Positions 1-47,234 of a DNA stretch of 64,000 nucleotides are shown here, one piece after another. Under the pieces are notes generated by a model. It was not told where the DNA came from. It worked only from the letters and a program-made list of their open reading frames with translations, and made no database searches. The position numbers and the translations under genes are program-made. The DNA is taken from the NCBI GenBank assembly GCA_964484655.1, contig CAZAFA010000003.1:28147-92146 (forward strand), written 5' to 3'. Positions within the stretch are counted from its first letter, which is position 1. Each line of letters begins with the position of its first letter. The stretch comes from an uncultured Candidatus Saccharibacteria bacterium. Lineage in GTDB: Bacteria > Patescibacteriota > Minisyncoccia > UBA6257 > 2-01-FULL-56-20.

Positions 1-562
1 CGATTCCAATGGCCAGCATGGAGGCCGCTACTGCGCTCATGATCAGAATTAGTACAGAGCTAGAGGCTACATATTTCCAAGTTATACCTTCGAACTTCCT
101 ATAGAGTTTTTCGAGAATTCCCCAATAGATAAGGAACAACAAAGTTGAAAAGCCTGGGGAAACAAGGCGAGCAAATTTATGCCATTCATCTCCGTATAAG
201 CTGATCGTGTATTTCCATGTGTTGTAAAGAAACCATGCAATAGATGCCAATACGACTGTGCTTATGCCCGATGTGATATCTAGTCCTGTTTTCTTTCTAT
301 AGTGCTCTTCAACTTTCCAAGTAAATTTGAGGAAAGAGAAGCCCAACCACACTGATGTCAAAGATATTATTAATATCCATAAGAATTGGAGATTGGATAA
401 AGCAATTTTTGCTGCTGTATTTTCTGGGATATTTATATTGAGGAAGATTGCCCCAGTAGCAAGTAGAAATCCTGCAAAGGTTAGCCCTTCTTTTTTTTCG
501 TCCCAAAAGAGCTGAAAGGTTCTTGACAGACTAGGTTTAGCGAAATCTCCGTTCTCTGTCAT
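1..562 (-). CDS. Integral membrane protein, 3'-truncated by window edge. Low-GC ORF, start ATG at 560-562, multiple hydrophobic segments (MTENGDFAKPSLSRTFQLFWDEKKEGLTFAGFLLATGAIFLNINI...)
   Basis: Hand translation of the minus strand gives an uninterrupted ORF from 562 to position 1. It is not in the ORF track because it runs off the edge. GC is about 38% against about 67% for the window. Several predicted TM helices. Confidence 0.55.
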   Translation of the reverse strand, partial: MTENGDFAKPSLSRTFQLFWDEKKEGLTFAGFLLATGAIFLNINIPENTAAKIALSNLQFLWILIISLTSVWLGFSFLKFTWKVEEHYRKKTGLDITSGISTVVLASIAWFLYNTWKYTISLYGDEWHKFARLVSPGFSTLLFLIYWGILEKLYRKFEGITWKYVASSSVLILIMSAVAASMLAIGI

Positions 563-594: not shown

Positions 595-665
595 CGGGGG
601 CACCAGGAATTGAACCCGGATTGGCGGTTTTGGAGACCGCTGTCCTACCATTGAACGATACCCCC
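595..665 (-). tRNA. trnW: tRNA-Trp (anticodon CCA)
   Basis: Cloverleaf on minus strand: acceptor GGGGGTA/TGCCCCC, T-loop GGTTCAATTCC, anticodon loop CUCCAAA. 3'-CCA not encoded (CCG follows). Confidence 0.8.
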
Positions 666-681
666 AGGACCAGCTCCTATT

Positions 682-864
682 TTACTTCTTGGAGCTGATC
701 TTCACCTCCTTGTGGACGGTGTGCGAGCGATCCCACGGGCAGAACTTCGTGAGCTCGATCTTCCGCGTGACCTTCTTCTTGTTGCGGTGCGTGTAGTAGT
801 TACGACGCTTGCACTCGACGCAACGGAGGCCGATGAGATTGTCTGCGTATTTGACCTTGGCCAT
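682..864 (-). CDS. rpmG: 50S ribosomal protein L33 (Zn-ribbon form)
   Basis: 60-aa ORF MAKVKYADNLIGLRCVECKRRNYYTHRNKKK...FCPWDRSHTVHKE, typical L33 with a CxxC...C motif. The conserved rpmG-tRNA-Trp neighbourhood is present. Confidence 0.85.
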   Translation of the reverse strand: MAKVKYADNLIGLRCVECKRRNYYTHRNKKKVTRKIELTKFCPWDRSHTVHKEVKISSKK

Positions 865-964: not shown

Positions 965-1021
965 CGAGTATCCAGGCCGGGCCATTGTGCCTCATCGCCC
1001 CTTGACGAGCAAGGCCTGATG

Positions 1022-1095
1022 AGCCGGAGGTGGGATTCGAACCCACGGCCTGCTGTTTACAAAACAGCCGCTCTGACCGCTAAAGCTACTCCGGC
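1022..1095 (-). tRNA. trnT: tRNA-Thr (anticodon UGU)
   Basis: Minus-strand cloverleaf GCCGGAG...CTCCGGC, anticodon stem GCTGT/ACAGC with loop UUUGUAA, T-loop GGGTTCGAATCCCAC. No encoded CCA. Confidence 0.75.
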
Positions 1096-1233
1096 TCGCT
1101 CCGGACGCACCTCACGCGCAACGGAGACGCGAGGAGGGTACCACGGCCGCTCCCGTCCGGGGAGGCCACGGGGCCACGGATGTGTATAGCAGTCGAGTTC
1201 CGGGAGGCGGCTGCGTCCCCTACACTAGGCTGC

Positions 1234-35700: not shown

Positions 35701-36354
35701 AAGTGAAGCATTAGTATCAAACCAGAGTCCGGTGCCTCCGTATCCGAAGATGGTTCCGACCGGGGATCCGTTACCAACAAAGCTAATTGTAGGATAGTAG
35801 CCCCCTGCAGGAGCATAGAGTGTCAGACCCGGGTTTACTGAGGACACGTCGGCATAGATACGACTACCGCCCAAACTCGTCCTGTTAATATCGAGATTAT
35901 ATGAGGGAGCGGTACCGATACCGACGCTTGAAGGGAAGGTATAGTTCCCGCCACCCGTGTTCGCACCGAACTGGCCCGAGGAGACGTTCGGGGCTGACAT
36001 GGTGCTGCCCAGCGCGGTCCCGTTCACAGTCAGCGTCCCCTGGACGTTGGTCGTGCCGTCGTTGCGCACCCAGAAGAGCGAGGATCCGGCGGAGTTGTAG
36101 GCGTGGACGGCATACGCCGCGGAGGTCGTGCCGCTGCCGTAGACGTTCAGGCGGTTCGCCGACGCGACCGTGCTCGATCCGATAGCGACGTTGTTACTCG
36201 CATCGGTCGCGATTGCGCCGCTGCCGACGCCGCCAGAACCGGAAGGCCCGATGAACGCGTCAGCGACGCTGATCGCGATCACGCCCGCTGCGATGAGGCC
36301 GGATACGCCGAGCGCGATCAGCCCGAACGCTGGTGATGACTGCCGGAGGCGCAT
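32722..36354 (-). CDS. Giant (1210 aa) Gly/Ser/Thr/Asn-rich cell-surface repeat protein with fibre-like, beta-helical-looking repeats
   Basis: N-terminal signal/TM (FGLIALGVSGLIAAGVIAISVADA). Four copies of an (M/I)SAANVSSG(Q/S)FGANTGGGNYTFPG motif and three copies of FRFPDGTTQTTAA. A compact C-terminal domain of about 110 aa. Confidence 0.6.
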   Translation of the reverse strand: MRLRQSSPAFGLIALGVSGLIAAGVIAISVADAFIGPSGSGGVGSGAIATDASNNVAIGSSTVASANRLNVYGSGTTSAAYAVHAYNSAGSSLFWVRNDGTTNVQGTLTVNGTALGSTMSAPNVSSGQFGANTGGGNYTFPSSVGIGTAPSYNLDINRTSLGGSRIYADVSSVNPGLTLYAPAGGYYPTISFVGNGSPVGTIFGYGGTGLWFDTNASLPFVFRPNSTEQFRITTTGILGTNFGYDTANMRSYFGVGSAQSAANFFGNAWTATQPVMVVRGAASQSANIIDTQNSAGTRLLSITSAGYIMFPDGTTQSTAAVSGSSTMAAANISAGSFGANTGGGNYAFPAHVVVGTTSPENSEGWSRVLDILGASHAKLSVRTAAIDARVLAHEIGWWGAPAGMILGTYSNHPLSFGTNANVRMTILANGNTGIGTTSPGSLLQLGSNTYQNDAAMRIASGNGSNTKTYSILTPYGGAAVTGRYYDFIIRDETAGVDLLNIDWSTSNVGIGTSDPQYKLQVVGTIHSSSGGFRFPDGTTQTTAAAGTMSAANVSSGQFGANTGGGIYTFPGSVRFNGDASGNYYFNVSATGGAGFTTLNAVSNQPLGRLVIGNSNNPSNTVIGAGGGWDTYFLGQQVGIGCYGGTYRFCVGPAGDGGVGGTGTNFGVMADGTVGMTNGSAAAPSLAAIGDTNTGLYWSGGDTISLSTGGTQRLTVRSDGSVGIGIATPSGRLDIGSGALYFANNAADSCGMFAQYIAGAQQVTFGSTGCGTNEYWQFTSAGGGNLMKIQANGNVGIATTTPGYKLTVAGTIYSSSGGFRFPDGTTQTTAASGSGTIAAANVSSGSFGANTGGGNYTFPGTVTLSTTASGNLLSVGTTGSSQARIAASTGSGIAGINFTSNSNTWFVDNRGSNDVSLPANRLGIFNTGGNEIASITQSGNLVLGISGASAFPNFGSTDRLIMNTSSSLAWHSNGSISNRIYDNGYNGLTIEGEGSWWSAIQFRNGYLGTTTNQIALASGGGGGVYTFFASGNVGIGTKTPGYLLDVASAGGTTARIGTSSGDTLTIGDGAGKINVGTIDPIYQIGNEKFATYMAGMIGVKEEVAGDLEISCVDGRCVKLIDFAKEDHGSDLWLFGKVTDIRKHLPKASILLTPGFDGRVRYEKGDGTLTIIATPFEKRDSVEVSYRFTAPRFDADSWSNRTTDKATGFIIP

Positions 36355-45470: not shown

Positions 45471-45656
45471 ATGCGCCAGTGCATGCTCTGCCTCAAGGGA
45501 TCGGTCATCCGCGGGAAGCGGCGTCTTCTGCGCGGCCACTACAACCCGGTCTCGAAGTCGCGCAAGTACCCCAACCTCCAGAAGACGAAGGTCCTCGGCA
45601 TCACGGTGAAGGCCTGCACCAAGTGCATGCGCACCCTCGCCCGGACGGACCGGTAG
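45471..45656 (+). CDS. rpmB: 50S ribosomal protein L28 (Zn-binding form)
   Basis: ORF 45339..45656 trimmed to MRQCMLCLKG...YPNLQKTKVLGITVKACTKCMRTLAR. Confidence 0.7.
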   Translation: MRQCMLCLKGSVIRGKRRLLRGHYNPVSKSRKYPNLQKTKVLGITVKACTKCMRTLARTDR

Positions 45657-45661
45657 CGAAG

Positions 45662-45735
45662 CGGGCTGTAGTATACCGGTAGTACGCATGCATGGGGTGC
45701 ATGTAGACCGGGTTCAATTCCCGGCAGCCCGACCA
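45662..45735 (+). tRNA. trnP: tRNA-Pro (anticodon GGG), 3'-CCA encoded
   Basis: CGGGCTG...CAGCCCG acceptor (C1-G72), anticodon stem CATGC/GCATG with loop AUGGGGU (G37), T-arm CCGGGTTCAATTCCCGG, ACCA end. Confidence 0.7.
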
Positions 45736-45740
45736 GGCAA

Positions 45741-45771
45741 CGCGAAAGCCGCTCATCGAGCGGCTTTCGCG
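45741..45771 (+). terminator. Perfect 14-bp hairpin CGCGAAAGCCGCUC-AUC-GAGCGGCUUUCGCG after tRNA-Pro
   Basis: Inverted repeat read directly from the sequence. Confidence 0.45.
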
Positions 45772-45894
45772 TACCCCGTAGAGATTGACCCGGCCAGAAG
45801 CCAGGTGGGAGAGCTCAGCGTACGGCCCACGGGCCGAAGCGATTCGCAATCCCCTTTCATTAGCAGTCGAGAATCTCTACGGGGCTGCCTTACC

Positions 45895-45914
45895 CTACCA
45901 TGCCGGCATGGTAG
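45895..45914 (+). promoter_or_regulatory. Perfect 20-nt palindrome CTACCATGCC|GGCATGGTAG overlapping a TAGAAT -10-like hexamer, 9 nt upstream of the ATG of the 45927 gene. Candidate operator.
   Basis: Palindrome and hexamer read directly from the sequence. Confidence 0.4.
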
Positions 45915-45926
45915 AATGCACCCTGC

Positions 45927-47234
45927 ATGACGCTCCGCACGCGCCGCATATTCTTCTGGTCGCTTATCCCCTGCTTCGTCGTGGGCGGGGCGGCCGCGGT
46001 GCTCTACTCCCAGGGATACCGTATCGACACCGAGACCCGGCAGGTCGCCAAGGTCGGTGCCCTTTTCGTGCGCGGCTTCCCGAAGACGGCGCACATCACG
46101 CTCGACGGCGAGACGCTCAACACGGGATCGTGGTGGCCCCTCCAGAGCGGCACGCTCGTCGGCAGTCTCGTGCCCGGAACATACAGCCTCCATGCCGAAG
46201 CGCCCGGCTTCCGGACCTGGGACGCGGAGGTGGTGATCCGTCCCGCGCTCGTCACCGAGCGCAAGTCGCTCATCCTCTTCCCTGACCGGCAGGTCCCGCT
46301 CGTCATGGCTACCGGCACGGCTGCCGCGGACATCGACGCTCCGGACGACTTCGAGCGCCCGGTCGTGATCACCGGCGCGGACAATCCGCGCGCGGTCGTC
46401 GGGACCGCGGCGGTGCCAGGCACGTACGTGGGCACGGTGAACGGGAAGCTCGCGCTCACCTCGGCGGTGCGCCGCGGCAAGGTCACCGGCCAGATCCTCA
46501 CCCTCCAGGCCCCGACTGAACCCGCGGCCACGACCGTCACCCTGCAGGGCGAGGGCGAGACCGCCGTCATGGCCGATTCCGTGCTCCACCGCGAGAGCAG
46601 CCGCCTGATCGCTGCTTACGACGGCTCCACTGGCCGCCGTACGGTGTTCGCCTCCTCTACGGACCCGATCGGCGCCTATATCCGGACGTCCTCCGTGGAC
46701 GCCTGGCAGACGCTGGGCGCCCGCCCGCAGCTGCAGATCCGCCGCAGAGGAGCCACCTCCGTCATCGCTATCCCCCTGGGCGAGATCGCGTCCATACAGC
46801 GCTCCGGGGCGGCCCTGGGAATCGCCGGCAAGAACGGCAGCCTCTGGCTCGTCAACCCCGACTCGGGCGCCATCCAGGAGATCGGACACCGCGCGGCGCA
46901 CGCCTCCTGGAAGGATGATGGGAGCGCCGTCGCCGCCATCATCGACGACCAGATCGAGGTCATCCCGCTCAAGCGCGACGTGCCGCACGGCAGGCTCTCC
47001 GGAATCCTCGATCGCGCGGACAAGGTCCGCCGCATCGCCTGGTACCCGGACGGCGAGCATCTCTTCGTCGAGACCTCGGAGGCGCTCCTGTTCGCCGACG
47101 TCATCGACGGAAGCACAGCAGAGCAGCACGCATACCGACTGCCCCTTCCGGACGCATGGTCCTATTCCGACAGGAACAAGGCGCTCTACGTCATCCGCGG
47201 CGGCGCCGCGCTCAGCTACGTGTTCCCCGACTAG
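45927..47234 (+). CDS. Membrane-anchored protein with a PEGA-like domain and a C-terminal beta-propeller-like (TolB/WD40-like) region
   Basis: N-terminal TM IFFWSLIPCFVVGGAAAVLY. VRGFPKTAHITLDGETLNTGSW...GTYSL resembles PEGA. C-terminal ...IAWYPDGEHLF... The opposite-strand ORF 45753..47129 looks like a GC-driven artefact. Confidence 0.5.
   Translation: MTLRTRRIFFWSLIPCFVVGGAAAVLYSQGYRIDTETRQVAKVGALFVRGFPKTAHITLDGETLNTGSWWPLQSGTLVGSLVPGTYSLHAEAPGFRTWDAEVVIRPALVTERKSLILFPDRQVPLVMATGTAAADIDAPDDFERPVVITGADNPRAVVGTAAVPGTYVGTVNGKLALTSAVRRGKVTGQILTLQAPTEPAATTVTLQGEGETAVMADSVLHRESSRLIAAYDGSTGRRTVFASSTDPIGAYIRTSSVDAWQTLGARPQLQIRRRGATSVIAIPLGEIASIQRSGAALGIAGKNGSLWLVNPDSGAIQEIGHRAAHASWKDDGSAVAAIIDDQIEVIPLKRDVPHGRLSGILDRADKVRRIAWYPDGEHLFVETSEALLFADVIDGSTAEQHAYRLPLPDAWSYSDRNKALYVIRGGAALSYVFPD

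Follow-up and report, generated by a model that had tools for sequence, protein, structure and literature searches.

A putative orphan RNA gene and a divergent pair of predicted extended -10 promoters beside a beta-propeller gene in uncultured Paceibacterota-like bacteria

Background

The SRP (4.5S) RNA folds into one long hairpin, in which a GNRA tetraloop and two internal loops of domain IV are conserved. Actinobacteria and Deinococcus are well known for leaderless mRNAs, in which a -10 box lies just before the start codon. Apart from the universal ones, very few non-coding RNAs have been described in the candidate phyla radiation, no mapped promoters of organisms of this radiation were found in the literature, and a literature search on structured RNAs or leaderless promoters in this bacterial group returned nothing relevant. 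Divergent transcription from a compact site has been described at the bidirectional promoters of Escherichia coli, where a single -10 element serves both directions, the distance between the divergent starts is most often 18 bp (10 and 23 bp also occur), and polymerase bound in one orientation keeps out polymerase in the other (Warman et al., Nucleic Acids Res. 2026, PMC12825309).

Here we analyze the DNA between a tRNA-Pro gene and a beta-propeller gene in a 64-kb stretch (the window, which means the whole stretch of DNA analyzed) from an uncultured bacterium. The first-pass annotation had described this DNA as a structured leader of the beta-propeller gene, made of a long-range inverted repeat and a palindrome over the -10 box, and had proposed either a cis-regulatory RNA or a repressor operator on an almost leaderless transcript. 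Comparison of the window with 16 related loci leads us to a different reading, which we regard as likely: the region would comprise a divergent promoter pair and, on the minus strand, the gene of a small RNA, and would not be the leader of the plus-strand gene.

Results and discussion

Gene neighborhood and related loci

The G+C content of the window is about 62-73%. Upstream of the element, the gene order is a PrsW-type protease, an HSP20 gene, a short L28-like gene (45471-45656) with a weak, sub-threshold Pfam match, and tRNA-Pro(GGG) (45662-45735, plus strand), a neighbor that lies outside the RNA and promoter unit. Downstream, the beta-propeller gene (45927-47234, plus strand) encodes a protein of 435 aa with a membrane anchor, an Ig-like (PEGA-like) domain and a beta-propeller. 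No Pfam family was found above threshold in this protein. Its structure model (pLDDT 85.3) contains an N-terminal membrane helix, an Ig-like sandwich and a beta-propeller, and the best solved match is the Lp49 antigen (3bws, a leptospiral surface antigen), together with many propellers. Given this model, the label of PEGA/beta-propeller gene used by the first-pass annotation appears reasonable.

Nineteen homologs of the protein were found at 48-75% identity, and scans of genomes and of metagenomes with the protein gave one locus each. A Candidatus Paceibacterota genome bin is the one relative that carries a name. The RNA element described below is present immediately upstream of the beta-propeller gene in 16 of 16 related loci, all of them fetched via the protein (48-100% amino-acid identity), so that the occurrence of the RNA is sampled only beside this gene. 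The conservation of the repeat upstream of orthologs, proposed earlier as a check, is therefore observed. The element stays in place in one locus (L007) where rpmB and tRNA-Pro are missing, and in four others (L009, L013, L015 and L016) despite the presence of other DNA between tRNA-Pro and the element. Because it is fixed beside the gene in all loci, the element belongs with the promoter region of the gene and not with the tRNA.

A conserved RNA with a three-way junction

The inverted repeat is formed by CCCCGTAGAGATT (45774-45786) and AATCTCTACGGGG (45872-45884), which are 13 nt long, 100% complementary and separated by 85 nt; its 13-mer is single in the window when no mismatches are allowed. 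The palindrome CTACCATGCCGGCATGGTAG (45895-45914) was recovered by the repeat finder as a perfect 10+10 match. It overlaps TAGAAT (45912-45917), which ends 9 nt before the ATG at 45927, and it has no other copy in the window even with 3 mismatches (0 expected from shuffles). The sequence and the repeat finder thus bear out the exact 13-bp repeat and the perfect 20-nt palindrome that had been reported, and a local stem inside the repeat is likewise present (GGCCCACGGGCC, 45825-45836). A 111-nt segment folds better than shuffled sequences on both strands (z -4.5 on plus, -3.7 on minus; 0 of 200 shuffles as good). The main evidence against chance is the conservation and the compensatory changes seen in 13 other distinct sequences.

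Alignment and consensus folding predict a structured non-coding RNA of 113 nt on the minus strand (45773-45885), running from G45885 to U45773, and of 112-113 nt in related loci. As predicted from this comparison, the 13-bp repeat is the closing helix (P1, 14 bp) of an RNA with a three-way junction of P1, P2 and P3. The 5' arm of P1, GCCCCGUAGAGAUU (45872-45885), consists of the right-hand arm of the repeat plus one base, while the 3' arm, AAUCUCUACGGGGU (45773-45786), consists of the left-hand arm plus one base, which adds a terminal G·U pair. P1 is followed by J1/2 (45854-45871; alignment columns 15-32), 18 unpaired nt with a conserved YCGAC(U) and a variable, U/A-rich middle. P2 (45807-45853) is a long hairpin with the conserved internal loops RAAUC and UGN and an apical stem GGCCC-GUG-GGCC, the local stem that had been reported earlier. 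P3 (45789-45805) is a hairpin with an invariant stem of 6 bp (CCUGGC/GCCGGG), which includes an invariant U·G pair, and a variable loop.

The alignment comprises 14 distinct sequences from the window and the 16 related loci, with a mean column identity of 82%. Changes on both sides were found in 12 of the 35 pairs. Standard pairs occupy 96.9% of the pair cells against 90.8% in shuffles, and 0 of 500 shuffles reach the observed values, a control that may overstate significance owing to the kinship of the sequences. A second control, which is free of this problem, consisted of sliding the partners by 1-3 columns, and pairing then fell to 32-47%. Four pairs of P1 changed on both sides (UA to CG, AU to GC), as did 8 of the 15 pairs of helices 2 and 3, which make up P2. 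P3 receives no covariation support because its stem never varies. A covariance model of the RNA (R1) scores 102-129 bits on the minus strand, with one copy per locus, and finds no further copies within the 64-kb window.

A scan of all column pairs for a pseudoknot gave nothing beyond G+C-rich matches that are short and ambiguous and compete with the main helices. One alternative pairing is conserved, between UUYCC and GGGGA (45869-45873 with 45850-45854, RNA positions 13-17 with 32-36). Its formation would come at the expense of the inner end of P1 and of the base of P2, and it could represent a conformational switch, or chance in a G+C-rich RNA. A small ORF in the element was also considered: the window has a minus-strand frame that opens with ATG, this ATG is missing from relatives, and the alignment contains indels of 1-2 nt, which break the frame and rule out a conserved reading frame.

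Strand and 3' end of the RNA

Most pairs are Watson-Crick and therefore compatible with either strand. The remaining pair cells of the 14-sequence alignment differ strongly between the two readings: on the minus strand they comprise 33 G·U pairs and 15 mismatches, whereas on the plus strand the same pairs give 4 G·U pairs and 44 mismatches, mostly A·C. The invariant U·G pair of P3 becomes a C·A mismatch if it is read on the plus strand. In addition, the energy of the consensus fold is -54.1 kcal/mol on the minus strand versus -47.9 kcal/mol on the plus strand. This asymmetry of the wobble pairs and of the consensus energy indicates that the RNA is read from the minus strand, so that the predicted structured RNA is encoded pointing away from the beta-propeller gene. 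The proposal of a cis-regulatory structured RNA is accordingly upheld in one part, since a conserved structured RNA is present, and is not supported in the other, since its fold is kept on the strand opposite to the gene.

Between tRNA-Pro (plus strand) and the RNA (minus strand) lies a G+C-rich hairpin of 15 bp (45740-45772; arms 45740-45754 and 45758-45772). A terminator hairpin with 14-bp arms had been annotated after tRNA-Pro; the hairpin is there, with arms of 15 nt. It is followed by no U run on either strand in the window and is not called by a simple terminator scan. Read on the minus strand, a G+C-rich hairpin of 15-17 bp begins 0-2 nt after P1 in 11 of the 14 sequences, and the other 3 have a U-rich run directly after P1. 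The U tail is clear, or better, on the minus strand in L001, L013 and L015. The hairpin at 45740-45772 is probably a two-way terminator, and transcription of the RNA probably ends at or just after this hairpin shared with tRNA-Pro.

Two back-to-back -10 boxes

Upstream of the RNA, on the minus strand, stands TGGTAGGGT (45892-45900), a predicted extended -10 box of the form TGnTAnnnT, which would place the start of transcription at G45885. On the plus strand, TGGTAGAAT (45909-45917) is the predicted extended -10 box of the beta-propeller gene, of the form TGsTAGAAT. We compared these boxes in 17 sequences (the window and the 16 related loci). The minus-strand box is found in all 17; its T, G, T, A and final T never change, each of its four n positions takes three or four different bases, and its distance to the first G of P1 is always 6 nt. 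The plus-strand TGsTAGAAT is invariant in 17 of 17 and stands 6-9 nt before the ATG. TGn followed by TAnnnT, with T-12, A-11 and T-7 conserved, is the pattern of an extended -10 element of the sigma-70 type, and it occurs on both strands in every sequence. At such elements transcription begins about 7 nt past the hexamer, and the constant 6 nt to P1 and the 6-9 nt to the ATG give this indirect support. TAGAAT thus behaves as the -10 box that it had been taken for, within a predicted promoter.

The palindrome is formed by the outward-facing TGGTAG halves of the two boxes and an inner TGCCGGCA, and its perfection is particular to this genome. The gap between the boxes is 8 bp in the window and 4 or 8 bp among relatives, and the inner (third, "n") positions of the halves are C·C or T·C in most relatives. 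A variable gap and asymmetric inner positions are evidence against an operator or an RNA hairpin, and neither a conserved dyad nor a conserved half-site spacing, as expected of a symmetric operator, was found. On the plus strand, the palindrome hairpin reaches about -9.6 kcal/mol in the window and L010 only, and is absent in 6 of 14 relatives (0 to -0.5 kcal/mol). On this comparative evidence, the conserved unit is the pair of divergent, predicted extended -10 boxes, and the palindrome is a by-product of the pair and not a conserved hairpin or operator. What is invariant upstream of orthologs is only the two outward-facing -10 boxes, and not the palindrome, whose conservation had been put forward as a check. 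The palindrome of the window and L010 could nevertheless also be bound by a protein, besides its predicted role as promoter.

The layout resembles the bidirectional promoters of E. coli (PMC12825309) in its pseudo-symmetric DNA and in divergent transcription, the latter predicted here from sequence. It differs in having two hexamers, at 45892-45897 (TAGGGT, minus strand) and 45912-45917, which are separate, 10-14 bp apart and each with its own TG extension, and in predicted starts 36-42 bp apart instead of a shared -10 element with starts about 18 bp apart. No other back-to-back pair of boxes was found within the window. A simple promoter scan, which needs -35 and -10 hexamers, found nothing; this fits extended -10 promoters, because those have no -35 element.

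Leaderless geometry across the window

The window contains 25 boxes of the form TGnTAnnnT, and for 10 of these an ORF of at least 80 aa starts 4-11 nt downstream (background 8.3%, P=1.5e-5). An ATG follows 6-9 nt after the box in 8 of the 25, against a background of 1.9% (P=1.6e-8). Boxes 6-9 nt before the start codons of long ORFs are found at 35883(+), 39435(+), 62688(-), 60949(-), 36942(-), 14557(-), 13108(-) and 8530(-). It therefore seems that this genome commonly uses extended -10 promoters to make leaderless transcripts. The layout resembles that of the leaderless mRNAs of Actinobacteria and Deinococcus, with TAnnnT 6-9 nt before the ATG, no Shine-Dalgarno sequence between them and many genes involved; it differs in that nearly every case here has the TGn extension, and in the different, uncultured lineage.

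A box 6-9 nt before the ATG implies a leaderless mRNA, and the mRNA of the beta-propeller gene is predicted to be leaderless or nearly so, with a leader of 0-3 nt. The 9-nt distance in the window makes a leader of 2-3 nt just as likely as none. The almost leaderless transcript suggested for this gene is in line with the recurrence of its box-ATG layout at 8 of the 25 boxes. A structured leader does not agree with this geometry, as the predicted start of the transcript is downstream of both the inverted repeat and the palindrome.

Two further observations concern start sites in this genome. No Shine-Dalgarno-like sequence precedes the ATG of the L28-like gene (45471-45656, plus strand), and no -10 box does so either; thus the absence of a Shine-Dalgarno sequence is uninformative in this genome. 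A box, TGGTACCCT (1135-1143, minus strand), lies about 33 nt upstream of tRNA-Thr (1021-1095, minus strand) and is probably the promoter of the tRNA-Thr/Thr/Trp cluster.

Comparison with known RNAs and elements

Searches of Rfam 15 (4227 models), with the region at E<=10 and with the entire window at gathering scores, returned nothing but tRNAs and scattered chance matches below threshold, and in 13 related loci at E<=10 no family recurs at the element. The Rfam scan suggested earlier for a cis-regulatory RNA thus gave no family that matches the element. In its short length, its multi-stem covarying fold, its invariant junction and loop nucleotides and its narrow taxonomy, the RNA resembles the orphan motifs, discovered through comparative genomics, that Rfam classes as "Gene; sRNA". 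Unlike these, it comes from an uncultured, high-G+C, Paceibacterota-like lineage, and its promoter is interlocked with that of a protein gene. It also shares with 4.5S/SRP, 6S and Y RNAs a length of about 110 nt, ends locked in a long helix and an independent gene with its own (predicted) promoter and terminator; unlike them, it has a three-way junction and not a rod, no SRP-type tetraloop or loops and no central bubble. The partner genes ffh and rsr were not found near the RNA.

A search of viral contigs used the invariant P3 pattern, with 16 specified bases, and gave at least 120 matches, which by our estimate is about the number expected by chance. Eighty viral stretches were fetched as loci and none fits the covariance model (best E 0.38). 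Plasmid and phage collections gave no BLAST match.

A trans-acting antisense regulator of the mRNA of the neighboring gene was considered and rejected as a general mechanism: pairing of J1/2 with the first 80 nt is no better than in shuffles in 12 of 14 loci (z -1.5 to +1.3). The exceptions, L004 and L006, are closely related and have z of about -4, with a 10-bp match at codons 17-20. This potential pairing joins CCGACUAUGA in the single strand of the RNA (RNA positions 15-24) to UCAUGGUCGG or UCGUGGUCGG of the mRNA.

Alternative explanations

The first two alternatives take up the readings offered by the first-pass annotation. If the element were a plus-strand 5' leader, that is, a riboswitch or other cis-regulatory RNA with the palindrome hairpin as its expression platform, its place directly upstream of the gene in every locus would be explained, and its good folding on the plus strand (z -4.5) and its mostly Watson-Crick pairs would be compatible with it. 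The 44 mismatch cells that this strand implies, including the invariant C·A in P3, together with the G·U pairs on the minus strand, make this quite unlikely. Furthermore, no conserved plus-strand promoter exists upstream of the element, where the DNA differs among loci and usually forms a strong hairpin, and the invariant TGsTAGAAT stands past the element, at a leaderless distance from the ATG. The supposed expression platform would have no Shine-Dalgarno sequence to sequester, its hairpin fails to form in the 6 relatives mentioned above, and no cis-regulatory family of Rfam matches. A dimeric repressor that covers the -10 box and silences the gene would account for a perfect 20-nt palindrome that is single in the window and overlaps the -10 box, and good dyads are also present in L010 and L008. 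We nonetheless consider such an operator unlikely. With a gap of 4 or 8 bp, depending on the relative, the half-sites would not keep to one face of the helix, most relatives have C·C or T·C at the third position of each half, and a second copy of the site is absent from the window. Beyond TGnTA the halves are conserved differently (TAGAAT against TAnnnT), which is the pattern of two -10 boxes.

The other alternatives concern the identity of the element. A very divergent form of a known housekeeping RNA (4.5S/SRP, 5S rRNA, Y RNA or 6S RNA) would be in keeping with a single-copy RNA of 112-113 nt with its ends paired in a long helix and with its own predicted promoter and terminator, and also with an RNA that is better conserved (82% column identity) than the protein beside it (about 50-65% amino-acid identity). 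Even with permissive filters, however, the window and 13 related loci show no such family at E<=10. In place of a conserved GNRA tetraloop or SRP-type loops, the apical loop of P2 is CGUG or CUUG and the loop of P3 is variable, and no SRP model matches. The arrangement of an 18-nt junction strand, a long arm and a short arm is neither the rod of SRP and 6S RNAs nor the layout of 5S rRNA, and we judge this identity very unlikely. An element acting as DNA, such as the terminal repeats of a miniature mobile element, an integration site at tRNA-Pro or a cruciform, might be suspected from a long perfect inverted repeat beside a tRNA gene and from the variable space between tRNA-Pro and the element in relatives. 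It is the least probable of the explanations considered: a single copy is found in 64 kb and at each related locus, always at the same position, and this position is fixed to the gene and not to the tRNA. The compensatory changes affect the interior and not the ends alone, the asymmetry of the G·U pairs indicates an RNA of one strand, and in the searches for mobile DNA no plasmid or phage matched, the P3-pattern matches in viral contigs being those of chance.

Proposed mechanism and significance

A minus-strand RNA gene with a divergent promoter pair would work as follows. Transcription of the RNA would proceed from the minus-strand box TGGTAGGGT and start 6 nt downstream, at G45885. The first and last 14 nt of the transcript would pair as P1 and enclose J1/2, P2 and P3. 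The beta-propeller gene would be transcribed in the opposite direction from its own box, TGGTAGAAT, with little or no mRNA leader. Predicted starts about 36-42 bp apart suggest, from typical footprints, that the polymerase sites overlap and that one initiation may exclude the other; in that case initiation would couple the RNA gene to the protein gene. The structure of the RNA, its strand, the conserved boxes and the fixed distances to P1 and to the ATG come from the comparison of loci. From these we infer that both boxes are active, where the transcripts end, that the genes may be coupled and what role the RNA may have.

A stable RNA with a protein or a small ligand as its binding partner is suggested by the paired ends, the invariant junction and P3, and the conserved internal loop. 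Our best guess, held with low confidence, is that a protein or a small ligand is bound through the invariant junction, P3 and the internal loop of P2. A more far-reaching reading, which we find doubtful, is that of a clade-specific new class of RNA whose synthesis sets the expression of the leaderless gene for the envelope beta-propeller, with the junction sensing a ligand or protein. Under that reading, control might act through the choice of polymerase between the interlocked promoters, or through negative supercoiling produced by divergent transcription of the RNA. The locus probably harbors a new orphan RNA family and a predicted divergent promoter pair, an arrangement that is conserved in related uncultured Paceibacterota-like bacteria.

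The locus settles no long-standing question. The RNA family is well supported, with 12 covarying pairs from only 14 sequences, and the locus represents a compact and conserved case of two predicted back-to-back extended -10 promoters. The sequence evidence for leaderless genes with extended -10 boxes would improve the annotation of gene starts and promoters in such genomes.

Variable DNA beside the RNA gene

In L007, a PemK/MazF-type toxin gene (137-541, minus strand) is found 58 nt downstream of the RNA (599-710, minus strand) and on the same strand; no antitoxin gene was called. Between tRNA-Pro and the RNA, an islet of variable DNA is present in L009 (1104-1854), L013 (1198-1854), L015 (1451-1813) and L016 (1539-1733). 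These islets contain ORFs of 218, 120 (coiled-coil-like) and 64 aa, without a convincing Pfam family, or about 750 nt with no called gene. The islet may be an insertion hot spot at the 3' side of the tRNA.
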